A stretch of DNA of 32,000 bases from Candidatus Electrothrix sp. GW3-4 (GTDB taxonomy: Bacteria > Desulfobacterota > Desulfobulbia > Desulfobulbales > Desulfobulbaceae): NCBI RefSeq assembly GCF_037902255.1, contig NZ_CP147990.1:3870001-3902000 (forward strand), written 5' to 3'. Position 1 is the first letter of the stretch. Each line of letters starts with the position of its first letter. Of the stretch, positions 2,535 to 32,000 are shown piece by piece. Made by a program: the position numbers and the translations under genes. The notes beneath the pieces were generated by a model, which was not told the DNA's origin, ran no database searches, and worked only from the letters and a program-made list of their open reading frames with translations.

Positions 2535-3884
2535 CTAGTAATTATTCAGGTAGTTATTCAGCTCCCAATCGGTTACTGCGGTACGGTAATCATCCCACTC
2601 TTGCTCTTTGTTCTCAATATAGTTTTCCAGGATATGAGAGCCAAGGGTTTCGTCAGCAATGGGATTCATCTTCAACGCGTCAATAGCCTCTTTCAGATTG
2701 GCGGGCAGACTATCGATTCCAGCAGCCTCTTTTTCAGCAGGGGTCATAGAGAAGATATCCTGATCAACTGAGCTCGGTGCCTCCAGATTATTCTTAACAC
2801 CGTCCAGACCGGAGTTCAGCATCATAGCAAAGGCCAGGTATGGATTACAGGTGGGATCCGGACAACGAACCTCAGTACGGGTTCCCACTCCACGTGAGGC
2901 CGGAATACGGATCAGAGCAGAACGGTTAGAAGCAGACCAGGCAACGTAAACCGGGGCCTCGTAGCCCGGAACCAGGCGCTTGTAGGAGTTAACCAGCGGA
3001 TTGGTAACCGCAGCAAAGCCAGCAGCGTTCTTGACCAGTCCACCGATATACTTGTAGGCGGTTTCAGAGAGCTGCAGCGGCCCCTTCTCATCAAAAAAGG
3101 CATTGGTGCCGTCCAGATTGAACAGAGACTGGTTGGTATGCATACCGGAACCGTTGATGCCAAAGACCGGCTTGGGCATGAAGGTGGCGTGCAAACCATA
3201 CTCGGCCGCAATAGAGCGAACAACCCACTTGAAAGTTACGGTGTTGTCAGCAGCTGTCAATGCATCAGCATACTTGAAGTTCACCTCGTGCTGTCCTTCA
3301 GCAACCTCGTGATGAGAGGCTTCGATCTCAAAGCCCATAGCCTCCAGGGTCTCGATGATCTCACGACGGCAGTTGATCCCCTTATCGCCAGGATCAACAT
3401 CAAAATAACCAGCCACATCATGGGTAACGGTGCTGCCAGTACCGTCTTCGTTCAGCTCAAAGAGGAAGAACTCGGCCTCGGTGCCCACGTTCATGGTGTA
3501 GCCCATGTCTTTGGCCTCAGCAAGAACCCGCTTCAGGTTATTCCGCGGGCAGCCCTCAAAAGGGGTACCATCAGCCTTAGCCACGTCGCAGATAATCCGG
3601 GCAGCATTGGTGCCACTCTGGTTTCTCCAGGGCAGGACAGTAAAGGTGTTGAAATCTGGTTTCAGGTACATATCAGACTCGTTGATGCGAACAAAGCCAT
3701 CAATGGAAGAACCATCAAACATCATGTTGCCGTCCAGGGCTTTCTCAATCTGGCTCAGCGGAATGGCGACATTCTTCATATTACCCAGAATATCGACAAA
3801 CTGGAGCCGGAAGAAATGCACATTCTGCTCCTCGATAATTTTCATGATCTCTTCACGAGTTGTCTTATTGCAGTTGCAGCCCAT
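2535..3884 (-). CDS. glnA: Glutamine synthetase, type I (GSI-alpha-like, about 449 aa)
   Basis: Strong resemblance to type I GS along the whole ORF ([86 protein letters not shown]). I moved the start from 3971 to the ATG at 3884 because AAGGAG lies 6 nt upstream and the N-terminus then aligns with Bacillus-type GS. The 3971 start would overlap glnD. Confidence 0.95.
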
Positions 3885-3948: not shown

Positions 3949-6530
3949 TTACGACGCCTCTTCTCCATCACTGACGATATGGAGCAGGGTCTTTTGCACC
4001 CTGTTGAGGAGCTCGTGGTTACTTACTTTTTCCTGATCTTCCGTGGTCACATAAAAAACATCTATGAGCTGTTCCACTTCAGTGGCTATTCTCGCCCGGT
4101 GAATGTTCAGGTGAAAGTCGGACAGGACCTGAGTCAGCTGATACAGGGCTCCGGGTCGTTCACCACCATGGACCTCAATAACCGTATGACGAGCCGAGAT
4201 ATCATTATCTATGACGATCTCGTTATGCAACTGCTGGACCTGCCGTCTGCGTCCGTGAAGCGAAGACTCCAACTTAGTGTAGAGCGTTCGCCCTACATCC
4301 AGGCGATAATTGACCGCCTGATTCAGATCATACTCAAGGGCATCCCAATTCTGCTCATCAAAGGCTATTGCCGCCTCCGGCGCCAGATCCAGCATATCCA
4401 CCACGGTTCCGTCGGGCCAGGTAAAGATCTGGGCGGCCAGCACAGAGAGATTATGCAGGGCCAGTACCCCACAGAGCCGGGCCAACAGGCCCTGCCGGTC
4501 TCGGCAGAGCATGAGCAGCGACCAGGACCCCTGTTTCTTTTCCGGGAACAACAGGACCTTCTGTTGCAGGAGAACAGCATGATCCCGGTGCAGGCGCAGA
4601 TGGTCCAGAACGACTTCCGGGGTAAAGCTGACCAGATAATCCGGTGGCAGGTCCTCTACAGCCATACGCAAGGGAGCCTCATCCGGCTGAAGCTGATCAC
4701 GGACCTGCCCCCGTAACCAGGCAGCCCCCTGCTCTTCCCCCTGCTCAACATGGACATCAGTGGTACATTCCGCCTCCAGACAGGAGCGCACCTTGAGAAA
4801 CAGGTCACTCAGCAGGGTAGCCTTCCAGGCTGACCAGGCTGAAGGCCCTGTTGCCTTGGAGTCGGCCACAGACAAGAGATAGAGCATGGTCAACAACTCA
4901 GTTTCTTTGATCAGCTCGGCTGTGTCGTGAATAAAGACCTGATCCCCCAGATCACGACGAAGGGCATTTTCCGGGAGAAAGAGGTGATGACGAACAAGAA
5001 AGGCCAAGACATCACACTCTTTCTCTTCCAACCCCATCCGCTGCCCGACCTCATCAATAAGATCTGCCCCTAACACAGAATGATCCTTACGCTGCCCCTT
5101 GCCGATATCATGGAGCAGAGCCGCCAGGTACAGCAGATGCGGGGCAGTAAGGGAGGCAAAAAGTTCTTCCTCTGTTTGGCGCAAGGTGTACAGCTCCGCC
5201 ACCGTCTGGATTTGATGACGATCCACGGTATAAATATGATACAGATCATGCTGGGCCAGGGATTCCACGGTACCGAACTCCGGGATATAGGCGGACAGGA
5301 GGCCGGTTTCCAGCATGATTTCCAAGGCAGACGCAGGATTATTTTTTTCTGTCAGCAGGCCGATGAATGCATTAGCAACTCGCTTGGAAGAACGAAAATG
5401 ATCATTCACCACGTGCAGATTTCGGGTAACGGTCCGACGACTGCTGTGATGAATCGGCACTCCCCTCCGCACAGCCTGCAAAAAAAGGCGCATCAGTACC
5501 GCAGGGCGGGCGGCAAGATCTGACTCAGTAACGGCCAAACGCAGGGTCTTTGCCCGGACACAGATATCCCGCTCAACCTCCTGCTCGCCCTTATCCTTTT
5601 CACTAAGCCCTAAAAGTTCATGAACCTGCTCAAAAAAGAGGCTCGTCACAACGGAGATGGTCTGCAGGTGCCCATAGACCTCACGCATAAAGTGCTCAAC
5701 TGCCAACATCCCCATCCGGTCCTTATAGCCGAAGGCAGCTGCCATTTCTTCCTGCAATTCAAAATGCATCTGGTCGTTATGGCGGCGACTGACATAATGG
5801 AGCCGATTGCGGATCCGAGCCAGCATATTCCAGGATTCCTGAAAACTGCGACGATCAGCTAAAGACAACATACCAGCATCCTGCATAGCATCAAGATCCG
5901 GGAGTCCAAAAACCGCTTTTGCTGTCCAGAGCATGGCCTGGATATCCCGCATCCCACCGCGTCCTTCTTTAATATGGGGCTCCAAGCGATAGGCATGGGA
6001 ACCATATTTCTGCTGGCGTTTCTCGCACATTGCATCCATTGTGCAAACAAAATACTGCCGTTGCCCGTAGAGGATCTTCTTCTGGTAACGTTCCAGCAAC
6101 TCCCGATACAGGGACTCCGAGCCCGTAATCAGCCGGGCATCCAGGAGAGAGACTTCAAAGATAAAATCTTCTTTGGCAAATCGGATGGCATCTTTCACGC
6201 CACGAACACTGTGACCAACCTCAAAGCCTGCATCCCAGAGGGGATAGAGGATGGATTCCGCCACTGCGCGTATGTCTTTTTGGGACTTACGATCATGGAG
6301 CAGCAGGAGATCCACATCGGAATAGGGATAAAGCTCCCGGCGCCCATATCCACCTAAGGCAACAAGGGTTATCTTCCCGCACGCCTGCTTCACTGCGGCG
6401 GAAGCATTGAACTGGTCAAGAATAAAACGGTCGACCAACTCTGTATGTTGCTGCAGCAGTTGATGCCCACTCAAGCCCTGTTGCCAGAGTTCTTCCAGGG
6501 CCTGCCGTTGAGCATGCAGTTCCAGGGACA

Positions 6531-7595: not shown

Positions 7596-9080
7596 ATGGA
7601 GTTGTTGAGAACAATGAAACAGAAGCATGTTATTCAACGATTAAGTATGATGGCGATTTTCGCGCTCTGTTTTTTTCTGCTGACAATGCCAGCAGGAGCA
7701 GCGAATCAGGAAAACGATATTGCGATGCTGGATCGCTCTGCCAAGGCGTTCAGCTCTGTTGTTCGAAAAGCCGGGCCAGCGGTCGTCTATATCGGGGTGG
7801 AGAAAACAAACAAAACCTTTAACGGACATGGCCAACTGGACATGTTCAACGATCCCTTTTTCGAACATTTTTTCGGAAAAAAATTTGATCGCTTTCGTCA
7901 GGAACCAAGCCCGTTTAAGCAGCACGGAGCGGGTTCCGGTTTTATTATCTCCAAAGACGGCCTGATCATGACAAATAATCATGTGGTCGATGATGCCGAT
8001 ACCATCAGAGTCAGACTTGCTGACAAGCGGGAATTCACAGCCTCAGTAGTAGGGACCGATCCCCAGTCCGATGTCGCCCTGATTAAAATCGACGGAAAAA
8101 ATTTACCCACCCTGCCCTTAGGAGATTCCAATAAACTGGAAGTCGGCGAATGGGTCATAGCCATCGGCAGCCCCTTTGAGCTCAGCCAAACGGTCACCGT
8201 TGGCGTGGTTTCTGCCAAGGGCCGTTCCCGAATGGGAATTAACGACTATGAAAATTTCATCCAGACAGATGCCGCTATCAATCCGGGCAACTCAGGTGGC
8301 CCGCTGCTCAATATTCATGGCAAGGTGGTGGGGATAAATACGGCTATTTTCTCCCGCAGTGGGGGCTATATGGGAATCGGCTTTGCCATCCCTATCAATA
8401 TGGCCACGTCTGTTGAAGAACAGCTGCGCAGCAACGGCAAGGTGACGCGCGGATGGTTGGGGCTGGCCATTCAGGAAATGAACGAAGACCTTGCCCGGTC
8501 CTTTGGCGTAAACAAGGCAGAAGGAATTCTGGTTGCCGAGGTAACCAAGGGCTCACCGGCAGAAAAAGCAGGCATCCAGCAGGGCGATATCCTCCTCTCC
8601 CTGAATAACGACAAGGTCATTGACGTTACCGCCCTGCGCAATCGCATCGCCATGACCCCTCCGGGCAGCAAGGTAAGCCTGCAGATTTTCCGGGAGGGAA
8701 GAAAAAAAGAGATACCTGTTATTATCGCTGAGCAACCAGCCAATTTCAGCCGGGTCACCAGGATGCGCTCAAGAAAAAACAACAGTTCGCTTCTCGACAA
8801 TATGGGCCTGACCCTGCAGGAACTGACGCCAGAGCTTGCCAAACAATTCGGTTATGCTGAAGAACAAGGCATTCTTATCACTCAAGTTGCTCCAGATACC
8901 CCTGCGGACAGTGTCGGCATGCAGGCGGGACAACTTATTGAGGAGGTGAACAGAGTACGGGTACATAACATGGCTGAGTTGAAAAAAGCGGTCAAAAAAG
9001 GAAAGGATCCCAACCAGCTTCTCCTGCGTATTCGAGCCGGAGAGTACAGCAAGTACATGGTCTTGCGGGTCGATAAGTAG
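7596..9080 (+). CDS. htrA: Periplasmic serine endoprotease, HtrA/DegP/DegQ family (trypsin-like domain plus two PDZ domains)
   Basis: 494-aa ORF with a signal peptide (MMAIFALCFFLLTMPAGAAN). The catalytic triad contexts are present (TNNHVV; SDVALIKI; GNSGGPL). Two PDZ-like segments follow (GWLGLAIQEMNEDLARSFGV...GDILLSLNN and MGLTLQELTPELAKQFGY...GQLIEEVNR). The start could alternatively be Met7 (7614). Confidence 0.93.
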   Translation: MELLRTMKQKHVIQRLSMMAIFALCFFLLTMPAGAANQENDIAMLDRSAKAFSSVVRKAGPAVVYIGVEKTNKTFNGHGQLDMFNDPFFEHFFGKKFDRFRQEPSPFKQHGAGSGFIISKDGLIMTNNHVVDDADTIRVRLADKREFTASVVGTDPQSDVALIKIDGKNLPTLPLGDSNKLEVGEWVIAIGSPFELSQTVTVGVVSAKGRSRMGINDYENFIQTDAAINPGNSGGPLLNIHGKVVGINTAIFSRSGGYMGIGFAIPINMATSVEEQLRSNGKVTRGWLGLAIQEMNEDLARSFGVNKAEGILVAEVTKGSPAEKAGIQQGDILLSLNNDKVIDVTALRNRIAMTPPGSKVSLQIFREGRKKEIPVIIAEQPANFSRVTRMRSRKNNSSLLDNMGLTLQELTPELAKQFGYAEEQGILITQVAPDTPADSVGMQAGQLIEEVNRVRVHNMAELKKAVKKGKDPNQLLLRIRAGEYSKYMVLRVDK

Positions 9081-9107
9081 CCAACCATTGCACCAAACTA
9101 TTACACG

Positions 9108-9145
9108 CGCTCTTGGGCTGCTGGCCCAAGAGCGTTCCTCTTTCT
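9108..9145 (+). terminator. Rho-independent terminator of htrA
   Basis: 11-bp perfect stem CGCTCTTGGGC (9108-9118) / GCCCAAGAGCG (9124-9134) with a 5-nt loop, followed by a T-rich tract (TTCCTCTTTCTC). It begins 28 nt after the htrA stop. Confidence 0.65.
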
Positions 9146-9159
9146 CATTGCCATTTTTT

Positions 9160-9561
9160 ATGTCTACGACTTCCTCTCTTGATCCCCCCATCAATTCCTT
9201 GGCAGAGCTTAGCGCTGCTGTCTGTCAATTTGCCGAACAACGCGATTGGGACCAATTTCATAACCCGAAGAATCTCTCTATGGCCCTTATTGTTGAAGCG
9301 GCTGAACTGGTGGAACATTTCCAATGGCTGACCCGCCAGGAAAGCAGCCATCTCAACGGAGAACAACAAGATGCAGTGGCCATGGAAATGGCCGATGTAC
9401 TCATCTATCTCGTGCGGATGGCAGAACGGCTGGATATTAACCTGTTAGATGCTGCCCGGAAAAAGCTGGTGCTCAATGGCAAAAAATATCCGGTTGAGCA
9501 GGCCAAAGGGAGGGCGGATAAATACACCCATTATCAAACTCAAACCGGGAAGAATCGTTGA
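9160..9561 (+). CDS. MazG-like nucleotide pyrophosphohydrolase (small all-alpha NTP-PPase, dCTPase/YpjD-like)
   Basis: Motifs typical of the small MazG family are present: FAEQRDWDQFHNPKNLSMALIVEAAELVEHFQW and AMEMADVLIYLVRMAERLDINL...KYP. I moved the start from 9088 to the Met at 9160 because the 9088 version would contain the htrA terminator hairpin. No clear SD is visible. Confidence 0.8.
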   Translation: MSTTSSLDPPINSLAELSAAVCQFAEQRDWDQFHNPKNLSMALIVEAAELVEHFQWLTRQESSHLNGEQQDAVAMEMADVLIYLVRMAERLDINLLDAARKKLVLNGKKYPVEQAKGRADKYTHYQTQTGKNR

Positions 9562-10646
9562 CCGCAGTATGCGGACAGGCAGCCTCCTTTTTTCTCCCCC
9601 ACGAAAAAATCGCCTCCATAGAACCGCTGGGCGGGGGGATTGTCAACGATACCTGGCGCCTCACGCTTTCATCTGGGCAAAAATATATCCTTCAGCGGCT
9701 CAACCCATCAGTCTTCTCTGACCCTATTGCGGTTCAAGATAACCTGCGCAAGGTTACCAAGCATATCCACAGCCAGCTTCCAGCAGTACCTCAGTTACAT
9801 GGTCGTGACTTTACCCTGTTCCGCCCTGTTACCAATGAGGCGGGAGCAATAAGCTACCAGGACAACAAGGGCGCTTATTGGCGCCTGCTTACCCATATTG
9901 ATCATGCCCGCCCCCTGGATTCGATCTCCACGTCCAGCCAGGCCGAGGAGATCGGAGCCACCCTTGGCCTGTTTCACCAGCTCCTTGCCACCCTGCCCCT
10001 GGATTCTCTCACAGACCCGTTACCCGGTTTTCACAACACGCCGCTCTATCTTGCCCAATATGATCGGGTGCGCTTTGCTCCTCAAAATCCTGAGGTCGAG
10101 GATTGTCGACGTTTTATTGAGCAGCACCGGCAAGACGCCTTTCTTCTGGAGAATGCCCGCAAACATGGGAGCATAGGCCAACAGGTCATTCATGCTGACC
10201 CTAAAGTGGCCAATTTCCTCTTCTCCGCAGATAAAAAAAAGGCCATCAGCCTCATTGACCTGGATACAGTGAAACCCGGCCTCCTGCTCCACGATATCGG
10301 CGACTGCCTCCGCTCTTGCTGCAATCCCCTTGGGGAAGAGGTGGTGCACCCGGAGGAAATTCTCTTTCGGACCGATTTTTTTAGCGCTGCCGTGAACGGG
10401 TACCTGGAGACCGCTGCCGACCTGCTCAACTCTGGGGACAAGCGCCTCCTGATCGACAGTGTTTGGCTGATCAGCTTTGAGCTCGGCCTTCGTTTTTATA
10501 GCGATTATCTCGTCAATAACTGTTACTTTAAGATTGATTATCCAGAACAGAATCTCTTCCGGGCCCGAGTGCAGTTTGCCCTCGCGCGATCTATCAAACA
10601 GCAACATGACAGGCTATACGCATTGATCCAGCAGACCTCCCTGTAA
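9558..10646 (+). CDS. Phosphotransferase of the APH/choline-kinase fold (aminoglycoside phosphotransferase family; N-acetylhexosamine-1-kinase-like)
   Basis: 362-aa ORF. It has a Gly-rich N-terminal loop (IEPLGGGIVNDTWRL), a catalytic-loop motif (VIHADPKVANFLF) and a metal-binding motif (SLIDLDTVKPGLLLHDIGD), which I recall resembles NahK-type sugar kinases. The TTG start overlaps the mazG-like stop (TTGA). Confidence 0.75.
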   Translation: MTAVCGQAASFFLPHEKIASIEPLGGGIVNDTWRLTLSSGQKYILQRLNPSVFSDPIAVQDNLRKVTKHIHSQLPAVPQLHGRDFTLFRPVTNEAGAISYQDNKGAYWRLLTHIDHARPLDSISTSSQAEEIGATLGLFHQLLATLPLDSLTDPLPGFHNTPLYLAQYDRVRFAPQNPEVEDCRRFIEQHRQDAFLLENARKHGSIGQQVIHADPKVANFLFSADKKKAISLIDLDTVKPGLLLHDIGDCLRSCCNPLGEEVVHPEEILFRTDFFSAAVNGYLETAADLLNSGDKRLLIDSVWLISFELGLRFYSDYLVNNCYFKIDYPEQNLFRARVQFALARSIKQQHDRLYALIQQTSL

Positions 10647-28564: not shown

Positions 28565-30250
28565 CTAAGCCCTGGTTAAGCTCCGATAGCGGATCCGATG
28601 GGGTTGATCTGCCTCTGCGCCCATCCGCTTTTTATAGTCCTGCTCGTATTCTGAGTAATTGCCCTCAAACCAGACCACCTTGGAATCGCCCTCAAAGGCC
28701 ATGATATGGGTGGCAAGCCGATCCAGGAACCAGCGGTCATGGCTGATGATCACCGCGCAACCGCCGTAGCTCTCCAGGGCTTCTTCCAGGGCCCGCAAGG
28801 TATTCACATCCAGGTCATTGGTGGGCTCATCAAGCAGGAGTACGTTGCCGCCCTCTTTGAGCATCATGGCCAGATGGACCCGATTCCGCTGGCCACCGGA
28901 GATCTCTGAGACCTTATTCTGCTGGGCAGAGCCGCTGAAGTTAAATTTGCCCACATAGGCCCGGGCGTTGACCTCCTGGGTACCGAGCCAAATCGTCTCC
29001 TGGCCCTCAGAGATGGTCTCGTAGATGGTTTTGTTGGGATCAAGGTTATCACGGCCCTGATCCACATAGCAGAGCTTGACCGTCTCACCTATGCGGATGC
29101 TGCCCTCATCCGGCTCTTCCTGGCCGGTGATCATGCGAAAGAGAGTGGTCTTACCTGCGCCGTTGGGACCGACAATCCCGACGATGCCGCCCGGTGGCAG
29201 GGAAAAGGAAAGGTCCTCCACCAGGATCCGATCGCCATAGCTCTTGCTGATCCCCTCCCCCTCAATGACCACCTTGCCCAAACGGGGACCAGGTGGGATG
29301 TAGATCTCCAGCTTTTTCATCCGCTCAGAGGAGTCCTGGTTGAGGAGCTGCTCATATTGGTTGATACGGGCCTTGGCCTTGGCATGGCGGCCCTTGGGAC
29401 TCATGCGAATCCACTCCAGCTCCCGTTGCAGGGTCCGCTGGCGCTCGCTCTCCTTTTTCTCTTCCAGGGCCAGGCGCTTCTGTTTCTGCTCCAGCCAGGA
29501 GGAATAGTTACCCTTCCAGGGGATACCCCGTCCCCGATCAAGCTCCAGGATCCAACCAGCCACGTTATCCAGAAAATAACGATCATGGGTGACCGCGATG
29601 ACCGTGCCCTCGTAGCGCTGGAGATGATGCTCCAGCCAGGCCACGGACTCGGCATCCAGATGGTTGGTGGGCTCATCCAGGAGGAGGATATCCGGCTTCT
29701 TGAGGAGGATGCGACAGAGGGCCACCCGGCGTTTCTCACCCCCGGAGAGCACCCCGATCTTGGCCTCAGCAGGAGGACAGCGCAGGGCATCCATGGCCAT
29801 CTCCAGACGGCTGTCCAGATTCCAGGCATCAGCGGCATCCAGCTGATCCTGGACCTCGCCCTGGCGTTCAATCAGGGCCTGCATGGCATCGTCGTCCATG
29901 GGTTCGGCAAATCGGGCATTGATCTGGTTATACTCTTCCAGCAGATCAACAACGCCCTGGACGCCCTGCTCGACAATATCACGCACGGTCTTATCTGGAT
30001 CAAGCTCAGGCTCCTGCTCCAGCATGTCCACAGTAAAGCCCTCGGAGAGAAGGCTCTCGCCCTCAAAGTCCTTATCCTTGCCCGCCAGGATACGGAGCAA
30101 GGTACTCTTTCCTGAGCCGTTCAGGCCCAGCACCCCGATCTTGGCGCCGTAGAAATAGGAGAGGGAGATATCTTTAATAATAACTTGATCTTTGTACTTT
30201 TTACTGACCTTAATCATCGAATAGATGATCTTATTCGCTTCTTGTGCCAT
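28565..30250 (-). CDS. ettA: Energy-dependent translational throttle protein EttA (ABC-F ATPase)
   Basis: 561-aa ORF that appears collinear with E. coli EttA as I recall it (MAQ...ISLSYFYGAKIGVLGLNGSGKSTLLRILAGKDKDFEGE). It has two ABC cassettes: LSGGEKRRVALCRILL/ILLLDEPTNHLD and ISGGQRNRVHLAMML/VLLLDEPTNDLD. An arm/linker region lies between them. Confidence 0.95.
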   Translation of the reverse strand: MAQEANKIIYSMIKVSKKYKDQVIIKDISLSYFYGAKIGVLGLNGSGKSTLLRILAGKDKDFEGESLLSEGFTVDMLEQEPELDPDKTVRDIVEQGVQGVVDLLEEYNQINARFAEPMDDDAMQALIERQGEVQDQLDAADAWNLDSRLEMAMDALRCPPAEAKIGVLSGGEKRRVALCRILLKKPDILLLDEPTNHLDAESVAWLEHHLQRYEGTVIAVTHDRYFLDNVAGWILELDRGRGIPWKGNYSSWLEQKQKRLALEEKKESERQRTLQRELEWIRMSPKGRHAKAKARINQYEQLLNQDSSERMKKLEIYIPPGPRLGKVVIEGEGISKSYGDRILVEDLSFSLPPGGIVGIVGPNGAGKTTLFRMITGQEEPDEGSIRIGETVKLCYVDQGRDNLDPNKTIYETISEGQETIWLGTQEVNARAYVGKFNFSGSAQQNKVSEISGGQRNRVHLAMMLKEGGNVLLLDEPTNDLDVNTLRALEEALESYGGCAVIISHDRWFLDRLATHIMAFEGDSKVVWFEGNYSEYEQDYKKRMGAEADQPHRIRYRSLTRA

Positions 30251-30596
30251 ATGCTCCGTTCTGTATTGAATGAGGGTATTGACCGCCTTGGGTCGCTCGA
30301 ACTTGTTGTGCTCGTCCGGCTGGAACCAAGCGGCTGGAAGATTTGTTCAGCGTTACTATCTGTTCATAAACTGTATCTTGTTTTTTTGCGAAGGATTTCT
30401 GCATGAATTTTGGGGGATATCCTTTGTTGTGGGATAGCACAGATCGCTGGCATTCATTGCTTGAATTTTCTAAGGACATGCGATAGATAAAGAGTTTTAG
30501 CTATCGTTTCAACCAGTTTTCCCTCTCGTTCGGAGCCTTATCGCAGAGACATTTGATACGTTTTGCCTGTAACTTCCGAGAAAAGCAATGCTTTTT

Positions 30597-31118
30597 GTTT
30601 GCAAATAAAAGGTTGTTTGTTATCAAGAGAAGGTTATTAGTAACAAACAAGGAGTTGTTTGTAGCTAACAGAAGGTTGTTTGTAATAAATAAGGAGTTGT
30701 TTGTAGCTAACAGAAGGTTGTTGATAACCAACGAAGGAGTGTTTGTTAACAAGAGAAGGTTGTTTGTAACAAACAAGGAGCTGTTTGCTATAAACAGAAG
30801 GTGTTTGATAACCAACGAAGGAGTGTTTGCTCCTAGCAAAAGATTGTTTGCTACCAACAAAAGGTTGTTGTTAATCAACGAAGGAGTGTTTGCTATCAAC
30901 GGAAGGTGTTTGATAACCAACGAAGGAGTGTTTGCTATCAACGAAAGGTGTTTGATAACCAACGAGGGAATGTTTGCTCATGACAGAAGGTTGTCAGCTA
31001 TTAACAAAAGGTTCTTGGTAGCCAACAAGGGGTTGTTTACTCCTGATAGAAAGCTCTCAGCTATCAAGAAGAATATTTTGTTTAACAGCAAGAATCTATT
31101 GTTTGTCCGTAAAGGTGT
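30597..31118. repeat. Tandem array of about 25 copies of a 21-bp unit (approximate consensus GTTTGyTAnCAACrrAAGGrkT) with 42-bp higher-order repeats
   Basis: Units were read off by eye: 30615-30635, 30636-30656, 30657-30677 and so on, to degenerate copies near 31118. An identical 30-nt block (ggagttgtttgtagctaacagaaggttgtt) occurs at 30651-30680 and 30693-30722, an offset of 42. gtttgataaccaacgaaggagtgtttgct recurs at 30803 and 30908. Copies decay toward the right end. Confidence 0.9.
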
Positions 31119-31208
31119 GTTACTGAGTAAACACTAGCATAAAAAAACTCCGCTCACTAACAATATTGCACAGAAAAACAATATATTACCAAAGGGGCTT
31201 CGATTTAA

Positions 31209-32000
31209 ATGAATAAGTCTGGTTCAGGGTCAGCAACAAATGCAGGGATAGATTACCAGCAAAGAGTCTCTGCATTATTTCTAATAGCTTTACATTCTCA
31301 GTTCGACATCTCACAATTACTTAACATTAATGACGAATTAAATATTAAGTATGTTTCATACGAGACTGCAGAAAATGTAGATGATCTCAATATTATTTGC
31401 GATGACAACAAAATTTTATACATGCAAATTAAGCGCAAAATTGCGCTTTCCAAAAAAGACGGCTCTGAATTCCAAAAAGTAATTGAACAGTTTCTTTCTC
31501 AATATATCGCTGAACAAAAAATATCTGATCGGTTTCTTCTCATCACTACGTCAGACACATCAAAAAGTATTAAATATGATCTCAAAAAAATTTTTGACAG
31601 TATTAGGCTTAACGATACTGGATTTAAAGCGAACCCTTGCAATAATAACGAAGAAAAAACTTATTCAATCTTAGAAACAGTTTTTAATAACTCATATAAA
31701 AAACTGACCCAACATGAACCATCAAATAAAGATTTTGTTATATTTTGCAAGCAAGTATTCGTGTCTATTATTGATGTAGAAACCGATATGACAACAGAGA
31801 AAATAGCTGTCATGCTTTTGCACAGTGAAGGAATTAATATGCCATCACTGGTTTGGAACTACTTAGTATCCCAGAGTCTATATTATGCAACTAACAGATT
31901 ATCTTTAAACCGTGATGGTATAAATAACACTCTAGCAAAATATCAAGCCAAAAAGCCTACTCAGAAAGAATTGGAAATTCAATTAAATGAACTTTTGAAA
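31209..32000 (+). CDS. Partial ORF (first 264 codons, runs off the window; absent from the supplied ORF track): putative PD-(D/E)xK nuclease-fold protein with a Cap4/DUF4297-like N-terminal domain
   Basis: I translated this by hand. ATG 31209 is preceded by an in-frame TAA (31206-31208), and no stop occurs to position 32000 even though the DNA is about one-third GC. The N-terminus is MNKSGSGSATNAGIDYQQRVSALFLIAL...YETAENVDDLNIICDDNKILYMQIKRK. This matches the G-x-x-YQ...E...DD...Q-x-K pattern I associate with DUF4297/Cap4-type nuclease domains. The family call is from memory only. Confidence 0.55.
   Translation, partial: MNKSGSGSATNAGIDYQQRVSALFLIALHSQFDISQLLNINDELNIKYVSYETAENVDDLNIICDDNKILYMQIKRKIALSKKDGSEFQKVIEQFLSQYIAEQKISDRFLLITTSDTSKSIKYDLKKIFDSIRLNDTGFKANPCNNNEEKTYSILETVFNNSYKKLTQHEPSNKDFVIFCKQVFVSIIDVETDMTTEKIAVMLLHSEGINMPSLVWNYLVSQSLYYATNRLSLNRDGINNTLAKYQAKKPTQKELEIQLNELLK

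Follow-up and report, generated by a model that had tools for sequence, protein, structure and literature searches.

The window considered here, a 32,000-nt stretch of DNA from Candidatus Electrothrix sp. GW3-4 (contig NZ_CP147990.1, positions 3,870,001 to 3,902,000 of the forward strand), carries between the gene ettA and an AT-rich variable region a tandem array of 25 units of 21 bp, which spans 30586–31135 on the plus strand. DNA of cable bacteria (Ca. Electrothrix-type) yielded eleven independent arrays that have ARAAGGTTGTTTGTTAYNAAC as their common consensus, and the reading tentatively preferred below is that they are phased sites for a dimeric DNA-binding protein. The locus is composed as follows (coordinates are those of the window):

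28565–30250, minus strand: ettA, encoding an ABC-F translation factor (561-aa open reading frame, ORF); the left core gene, transcribed away from the array
30431–30528, plus strand: conserved 5′ region of the element, common to paralogous copies at other loci (alignment of seven loci)
30529–30606, plus strand: conserved leader, TTCGGAGCCTTATCGCAGAGACATTTGA...GAAAAGCAATGCTTTTT, which abuts the array and ends in a proto-unit (30586–30606)
30607–31026, plus strand: well-formed units 1–20 in strict 21-bp register
31027–31135, plus strand: degenerate tail units 21–25, in register; the order of the tail is common to other arrays
31209–32000, plus strand: PDC-M54A-like candidate anti-phage defence gene (N-terminal 263 aa), running off the window

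The first-pass annotation of this DNA, made from its letters, had described about 25 tandem 21-bp units, and this is borne out: the purine blocks of all 25 units start exactly at 30607+21n (30607 to 31111), the net drift over 504 nt of array being zero with the degenerate last units included, and Tandem Repeats Finder reports overlapping arrays across 30609–31067 with periods of 21, 42, 63, 84 and higher, among them period 42 at 30845–30978 (3.2 copies, 89% matches) and period 21 at 30691–30976 (13.5 copies, 69% matches). Recent duplications of 42, 63 and 84 bp are visible inside the array by the same program. The longer repeats noted earlier are real as well, but their details were 2 nt off; the identical block has 32 nt, at 30649–30680 and 30691–30722, and the 42-bp pair lies at 30886–30927 and 30928–30969. 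The dyad GTTTG-TAA-CAAAC was found where it had been placed, at 30762–30774. What did not hold is the description of length variants (18 or 24 nt, or compensating pairs of 20 and 22 nt) as changes of period; measured at the purine block all units have 21 nt, and the apparent variants are cases of the TGTTTG arm sliding by 1 nt within the fixed 21-nt frame, together with one change of AAC to AAG.

Read in the 30607 register, a unit opens with 6–7 purines and follows the pattern (ARAAGG or AAGGAG)-T-TGTTTG-YWAYY-AAC. With up to three mismatches this pattern has 18 matches in the window as against 0.83 expected by chance, and 12 of the 18 are within the array. The purine tract makes the two strands very unequal: AAGG occurs 20 times on the plus strand of 551 nt and CCTT not at all, and the array has 25% G versus 12% C. 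Every unit junction makes up a box of 14 bp, AAnA-N6-TnTT, after which comes a variable linker of 7 nt. The tail includes an imperfect hairpin, GTGTTACTGAGTAAACAC, at 31117–31134; the tail of the orthologous contigs L094/L095 (contigs are cited here by L numbers) matches window 30998–31112, and conservation with the orthologous locus stops at about 31135.

When 128 units are pooled, 114 of them distinct, their information profile has two-fold symmetry, with its axis at positions 4/5 in the middle of the purine tract (r = 0.85 versus 0.44 for the next-best centre); A19, A20, and A1 mirror T11, T10, and T8, and the weakly conserved C21 mirrors G9. The 228 substitutions between orthologous units amount to 17.6 per linker site versus 7.5 per core site (p = 1e-10), the 7-nt linker thus taking 2.3 times more substitutions per site than the 14-nt core, with A19, A20, A1, T10, and T11 as cold sites and the symmetric “n” sites 9 and 21 as hot ones. 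Orthologous units are ~92% identical, as compared to 85% for adjacent intergenic DNA and 92% for ettA coding DNA, and the constraint profiles of the two types of locus in which arrays occur (see below) correlate (r = 0.45, p = 0.02). The 21.0-bp register is perfect in nine of the eleven arrays, 1-nt slides of TGTTTG being compensated within the same unit; uncompensated insertions or deletions number 2 in about 150 units, despite a divergence between units of roughly 25%. Judged by these comparisons, the array is under site-specific purifying selection.

The array contigs were gathered by searching a protein collection with the conceptual translations of both strands, plus one pattern match in metagenomes. 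The window has orthologues in L096, L097, and L094/L095 (L094 belonging to Candidatus Electrothrix sp. ATG1), which share with it ettA (92% identical DNA in L096, 89% in L094), the ettA-proximal intergenic DNA, the 5′ region, the leader, the array, and part of the tail; the four orthologous loci have 25, 16, 14, and 12 units, and the downstream genes differ in each of the four strains. The combination of 5′ region, leader, and array recurs in L098, where its neighbour is a trpB-like gene, and in L101, where it is the remnant of sbcD, while in L088 leader and array stand beside an Rpn-type fragment; by these alignments the element occurs, together with its 5′ part, at several loci. The leader is conserved in seven loci, and its local alignment with L088 scores 53 versus a shuffle maximum of 27. 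At the type-2 loci (L081/L082, L099, L100, L093, L102) the array has another 5′ flank; a terminator-like hairpin precedes it and a TTGACA-type promoter comes after it. Downstream of it there is a conserved promoter-like region, and after this in most cases a gene for a protein of ~127 aa. Unit counts here are 7, 7, 10, and 12 (7 to 12 at this locus, that of a two-component system), L081 and L082 differing by a clean 63 bp, or three units. The shared consensus unit thus spans two locus types and several species, and at every locus the array is upstream of the next gene and co-oriented with it.

Outside this group the array was not met. The ettA loci of 80 species-representative genomes among the matches listed (family-level relatives which do not take in the cable bacteria; ettA 66–79% identical to that of the window) have none, a pattern scan of metagenome DNA returned one true array (L088) and nine chance matches, pattern scans of viral DNA returned no array, and BLAST searches against 72,556 plasmid records and against phages gave no match; the searchable literature holds nothing on such arrays. 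In the collections covered, then, the family is undescribed and confined to cable bacteria. It had been proposed beforehand that a functional role would be weakened if the array were absent from, or highly variable in, close relatives with no linked island genes; the outcome favours function, as the array is at the same locus in relatives, in variable copy number, and always beside variable genes.

Two observations concern DNA directly upstream of arrays. In L101 (reverse strand, about 405–440) an sbcD-like start, MFKFIHAADIH, is followed by a stop codon a few tens of bases before the 5′ boundary of the element; this truncation of sbcD suggests an insertion or joining of the element at this point. 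Rpn-type ORFs (PD-(D/E)XK, “transposase_31”-like), identified by eye, immediately precede two arrays; that of L099 (reverse strand, 1–930) is long, and that of L088 (1042–1323) is a C-terminal fragment.

In the 5′ region of the window element there is a near-palindrome, CTTGAATTTTCTAAG, at 30460–30474, and TTGAAT (30461–30466) is separated by 17 nt from TAGATA (30484–30489), a spacing fixed in six of six copies. The motif upstream of the type-1 copies, TTGAAT-N17-TAGRTA, is thus conserved but has a poor −10 element, and a consensus promoter scan calls no promoter in the 5′ region; near-palindrome and hexamer pair may represent a weak promoter or an operator. The consensus fold of the leader is weak (−9.4 kcal/mol, with a covariation term of −0.2 and one covarying pair).

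To the left of the array, the core genes comprise, besides ettA, glnA, glnD, and genes for a DegP-like protease and an amino-acid ABC transporter. To its right begins the AT-rich variable region, the GC content falling from 0.59 at 29–30 kb to 0.42 at 30–31 kb and 0.32 at 31–32 kb, which agrees with the earlier placement of the array at the compositional boundary of core and island. The first gene of this region, at 31209, runs in the direction of the array's purine strand, and its product matches PADLOC PDLC04700 (PDC-M54A; E = 9.6e-29); no Pfam family was found in its 263 residues. PDC-M54A is a candidate defence protein of ~1650 aa in PADLOC, of which the window holds the N-terminus. What follows the array on its 3′ side differs in almost every locus:

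Window: the PDC-M54A-like gene
L097, 21–1954, minus strand: a complete PD-T4-4 / PDC-M47 A+B defence pair directly after the array (770 and 239 bits)
L096: a gene of no assigned family
Type-2 loci: the gene for the ~127-aa protein
L093: behind the promoter-like region of the other type-2 loci, an unrelated gene

As far as the compared loci go, the array therefore forms a conserved border, on the upstream side, of a variable gene slot, which is filled by defence systems, by a small lineage-specific gene, or by nothing. The family of this ~127-aa protein, found downstream of type-2 arrays (L081:2892–3275, L099, L100, L102:7516–7899), has more than 170 members; nearly all of them come from Ca. 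Electrothrix and Electronema, where a genome has four paralogues or more, and a few relatives are cyanobacterial. AlphaFold models the protein with confidence (pLDDT 79.6) as a long hairpin of helices whose tail is basic/acidic, and no Pfam, NCBIfam or PDB-fold match was obtained. The protein was considered as a binder of the array, a role for which its lack of a family or fold match gives no lead.

Farther downstream, five independent loci have a second conserved non-coding element in the same orientation, here called element X, which is separated from the array by 60 nt in L101, 147 nt in L094, 677 nt in L081, 747 nt in L100, and 1667 nt in L102. The gap in L102 holds the 127-aa gene and a recombinase scoring 433 bits on TIGR02249 (integron integrase; cut-off 265). 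Element X ends in GTTAGGC just before small co-oriented ORFs; in L102 an attC that folds strongly (−54.9 kcal/mol, bottom strand) comes after the first of them, and at the Electrothrix ettA locus L094 there follow genes with attC-type sites (GCATAAC...GTTATGC) and a ParDE pair. Because it adjoins intI in L102, ends in GTTAGGC, and precedes attC-bounded cassettes, element X is, on sequence grounds, attI. In all, attI is present in L081, L094, L100, L101, and L102/L103, and attC sites, found by direct inspection and an inverted-repeat search, are present in L102 and L094. The parts (IntI, the attI region and cassettes with attC sites) map to L102:8005–9009 (minus strand), 8987–9199 and 9561–9672, and in L094 (reverse strand) to about 3382–3562 and the intergenic stretches 1265–1415 and 2320–2410; the attI region has three (C)GTGATAAGTGGAAA repeats. 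The integrase gene was lost from L094, where about 20 nt of its 5′ end are left, and it is deleted in several loci with differing end points. By these assignments, cable bacteria carry chromosomal integrons beside the arrays, some of them without intI; the literature searched does not mention integrons of cable bacteria. Defence systems have been reported from integron cassettes (bioRxiv 10.1101/2024.07.02.601719; PMC12614218).

In the window itself no attI, attC or intI was found in the 870 nt available before it ends inside the first gene; at the array junction alignments in search of an attI remnant score no better than shuffles, and no attC-derived scar is detectable. The PDC-M54A-like gene may be either a cassette or an occupant of the slot that separates array from intI/attI. 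The integrase gene is also absent from the ettA loci as far as their DNA extends. Since the array of L093 has no integron part within 10 kb, the link between array and integron is, among these loci, frequent but not obligatory.

The anatomy of the array, its strict phasing, its site-specific purifying selection, the lack of coding or helix signatures (see below), the family, and its genomic association are established. They would be explained best, though still tentatively, by taking the array as phased sites for a dimeric DNA-binding protein, because symmetric conservation without covariation is combined with an exact period of two helical turns and with compensated 1-nt slides. In such a scenario, the non-coding duplex would present about 25 copies of the two-fold symmetric 14-bp box AAnA-N6-TnTT, and as the boxes recur every 21 bp, or two turns, all copies would face the same side of the helix. 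A dimeric, sequence-specific protein might then fill the boxes cooperatively and build up an extended nucleoprotein structure, which could act on its neighbourhood in one of two ways: transcription into the acquired genes could be controlled or insulated, or recombination could be helped along there. The first-pass annotation had suggested a phased protein-binding array, and with this the strict 21-bp register and the two-fold symmetric profile without covariation agree; that a protein binds, that DNA rather than RNA is the ligand, and what the complex would do, we infer.

Centromere-like and iteron arrays, with which the array had been compared, match it in architecture. The F-plasmid sopC, R1 parC, and pSK41 parC are tandem direct repeats with a short inverted repeat in each unit; from unit to unit the distance is a whole number of helical turns, and a dimeric protein binds them cooperatively, which results in a large nucleoprotein complex. 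The units of the present array likewise each have a symmetric box. Unlike in those systems, neither parA/parB nor sopA/sopB nor parM/parR is present in the window or in 13 related loci, and unlike sopC the arrays are chromosomal, occupy several loci per genome, and lie beside variable slots and integron parts. Iterons (R6K, RK2, P1 incA) are similar in being direct repeats of ~21–22 bp phased on one helical face, with a conserved core and a variable spacer, and the period of exactly 21 bp falls into the iteron range of about 17–22 bp at a phase of about two helical turns; here, there is no Rep-like family among the flanking genes scanned or in the tables of called genes, no plasmid or phage similarity, no obvious DnaA-box or unwinding module and no replicon context, and the copy number of 8–25 is above the usual. 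The comparison thus stands as to architecture but not as to partners, as neither Rep nor ParAB/SopAB is seen in any flank.

Several points weigh against binding by a dimer. No gene for a DNA-binding protein is consistently adjacent to the arrays; the sole recurrent neighbour, the ~127-aa protein, is the one without a family or fold match. The bias of the purine tract to a single strand is strict and the co-orientation constant, neither of which a symmetric DNA dimer needs and both of which fit an RNA or a strand-specific process. The type-1 copies carry the promoter-like TTGAAT-N17-TAGRTA at fixed spacing upstream. In two arrays a 1-bp deletion stands uncompensated, so that the need for phase is not absolute, and the evidence is wholly comparative.

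A function as plus-strand RNA, be it a sponge of the CsrB/RsmZ type, an (ARN)n sponge for Hfq, or a long repeat-containing 5′ leader of the acquired genes, is possible but on balance unlikely. It would account for the confinement of the purine tract to one strand and for the co-orientation of every array with the downstream gene; further, six type-1 copies combine the conserved hexamer pair with a conserved leader of ~100 nt, the predicted stem of which is rich in G-U pairs and can form only on the plus strand, and the conserved A19 A20 n A1 R n resembles ARN triplets, with a weak period-3 signal (p = 0.036). Like CsrB/RsmZ, the array is intergenic and has many purine-rich AAGG(A) motifs at near-regular spacing and short complementary arms, and with 9 GGA in the window array it is inside the range of classical Csr sponge RNAs, which have 9–25 such motifs (PMC11882849). 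However, only 33 of the 128 units (26%) contain GGA, which is thus missing from about three quarters of them; the conserved core is AAGG followed by U, and the motif that defines CsrA targets is missing from it. No Rfam family is matched at gathering score (those that appear at E <= 10 are chance matches), and neither a consensus promoter nor an intrinsic terminator is called, the tails of the other arrays being without terminator as well. A CsrA sponge was rejected because of the GGA content and the lack of Rfam match, terminator, and covariation. The 32 kb covered here contain no csrA. To our knowledge none of the known Csr RNAs is an exact tandem repeat, and an exact 21-nt register has no known rationale in a flexible RNA. 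Furthermore, the type-2 array would fall outside the downstream mRNA, because it lies between the hairpin and the promoter. Base pairing is no better supported: the hairpins are weak (mean about −2 kcal/mol), covariation is absent from the units and negligible in the leader, and matching the arms gives no advantage over permuting them, whether the hairpin lies within a unit (TTGTTTG-loop-CAAACAA) or between units (AACAG-AAGG-TTGTT), with z = −0.4 and +1.9. The pairable fraction of positions 21 and 9 is 0.58 in the units and 0.58 after shuffling, positions 20 and 10 give p = 1.0, and the association of 19 with 11 is due to one tail variant inherited by several arrays, with mismatches at the neighbouring positions; a seemingly compensatory variant, TGAC...GTCA, likewise goes back to one tail variant, which a 63-bp duplication copied and which arrays share by common descent. 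Whole-array folds beat shuffles on both strands (z = −3.8 and −5.8), which does not discriminate, as any array of inverted arms would do so.

More doubtful is a functionless minisatellite (a variable-number tandem repeat) that was kept uniform by slippage and unequal crossing-over and carried passively with its flanks to a few loci; copy number does vary at the same locus (from 25 to 12 at ettA and from 7 to 12 at the two-component-system locus), recent 42-, 63-, and 84-bp duplications exist, and no partner gene or function is apparent, but orthologous units evolve more slowly than adjacent intergenic DNA, their substitutions show strong site specificity and symmetry, independent locus types agree in consensus and resemble one another in constraint profile, and uncompensated indels are very rare for units so diverged. 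Pseudo-core sites for a site-specific recombinase, be it the integrase of the nearby integron or another, with the 3′ edge of the array as a hotspot of insertion or replacement, are improbable to a similar or slightly greater degree. The array had been called recombinogenic, for which there is indirect support in that nearly every strain has other DNA 3′ of it (a stretch of 60 nt or of 147 nt, the 127-aa gene, an unrelated gene behind the promoter region, PDC-M54A, PD-T4-4 A+B, or an unassigned gene) and intI, attI, and attC adjoin arrays in relatives, as do Rpn-type nuclease genes in two cases. Integron R boxes have the form RYYYAAC and GTTRRRY, and unit junctions read YYAAC-N8-GTT, which includes their AAC and GTT triplets; the left arm TTGTTTG, though, misfits GTTRRRY. 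The window junction with neither scar nor attI remnant and the integron-free surroundings of the L093 array speak against it too, a recombination site has no need of 25 phased copies, and ordinary homologous recombination in the conserved flanks would give the same pattern. Hardly credible, finally, is a protein of heptad repeats, N-(KRE)-(RGE)-(LVC)-(FL)-(VAI)-x (alternatives in parentheses), encoded by 30553–31137 (plus strand) or 30501–30962 (minus strand). The two open frames do exist as described, the same plus frame and one minus frame are stop-free in the window, L081, L082, and L088, third codon positions of the plus frame take 105 of the 228 orthologous substitutions, and gene callers have annotated ORFs over arrays, but they picked the plus strand in some arrays and the minus strand in others. 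The Ca. Electrothrix ATG1 array has, in two assemblies, an uncompensated 1-nt deletion which leads to stops and is followed by eight good units, and in L097 well-formed units also continue after such a deletion. That neither ORF has a convincing start or Shine-Dalgarno sequence was seen at the outset and is confirmed: no ATG and no properly spaced Shine-Dalgarno is present, only TTG starts, which are placed differently at each locus, the first possible one of L088 being in the third unit. The synonymous fraction is 0.64 versus 0.59 expected at position 3 (p = 0.27) and 0.09 versus 0.09 at position 1; the excess of third-position substitutions comes from the linker and from the two degenerate motif positions 9 and 21, which happen to be 9 nt apart, and the period-3 pattern in conservation is mild (p = 0.036–0.056). 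Searched exhaustively, 1.84 billion representative proteins yielded as relatives only short ORFs that outside the repeat consist of translated flanks, and Pfam matches are under the cut-offs. With frameshifts in two arrays, no conserved start, no synonymous bias, and no true homologues, the protein was rejected, and the earlier preference for a non-coding array, against which synonymous-biased variation and protein-level homologues were to have counted, is upheld, neither having been found.

Other known arrangements do not fit. The array is not a clustered regularly interspaced short palindromic repeat (CRISPR) array, its conserved cores being parted merely by a 7-nt semi-conserved linker. A Chi-like signal was dismissed as well, the unit motifs being neither enriched nor strand-biased in about 57 kb of cable-bacterial DNA outside arrays, and no cluster of unit-like sequences was met elsewhere in the window or in other cable-bacterial DNA, as dispersal of the repetitive extragenic palindrome or mosaic element (REP/BIME) type would have it. 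Type III toxin-antitoxin systems (ToxI) resemble the arrays in having direct repeats just upstream of defence genes in the same orientation; ToxI-type units are about 34–45 nt long, occur in 2–6 copies, and are followed by a terminator and the cognate ToxN-family endoribonuclease. This candidate was rejected, the downstream genes being unrelated between strains (PDC-M54A, PD-T4-4 A/B, 127-aa protein, and others) and PADLOC finding no toxin of ToxN type.

The likeness to an integron platform is in the linkage, in relatives, of the array with IntI, attI, and attC cassettes, including toxin-antitoxin genes, and in the defence-gene neighbours; the differences are that the array is on the intI side and not among the cassettes, and that some arrays have no integron part nearby. 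We know of no integron of which a tandem array is a described component. It is conceivable, albeit quite unlikely, that the array is an architectural part of a new cable-bacterial gene-capture platform, present in several copies per genome, in which a phased scaffold would lie beside, and perhaps work with, an intI/attI module, a second slot between the array and intI/attI taking up defence systems and the lineage-specific small gene.

Should a protein bind the boxes, the array would be a chromosomal, multi-locus counterpart of plasmid centromere and iteron arrays, placed at the edge of regions that store defence genes and integron cassettes of cable bacteria, and would offer a testable handle on how such slots are regulated or remodelled; its consensus would also serve as a sequence marker by which to find them in fragmented metagenome assemblies. 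Should it act as RNA instead, an exact 21-nt tandem-repeat regulator would be unusual. Ca. Electrothrix genomes, by the assignments above, carry integrons, some without intI, next to ettA and other core genes.

Three minor observations are added. The ettA-proximal intergenic DNA (30251–30430) is highly conserved across the four orthologous loci; a candidate ORF of 27 codons lies at 30403–30486 on the plus strand (MNFGGYPLLWDSTDRWHSLLEFSKDMR), its frame being kept in L094 and L097 and its ATG missing in L096, and the conserved stretch may instead be a structured 5′ untranslated region or promoter of ettA. At 4535–4577 of the window two neighbouring unit-like matches (three mismatches each) are on opposite strands of a palindromic stretch in or near a core gene, a pair which is probably due to chance. 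Finally, the heptad query also drew conceptual ORFs from other, unrelated 21-bp arrays (P0015, P0016, P0022, P0024, P0033, P0037), with heptads such as NSPLFVA, NKTFFVS, NKWLFIL, and NTSLFVH; exact 21-bp arrays with TT(T)GT...AAC-like content may thus be more widespread.

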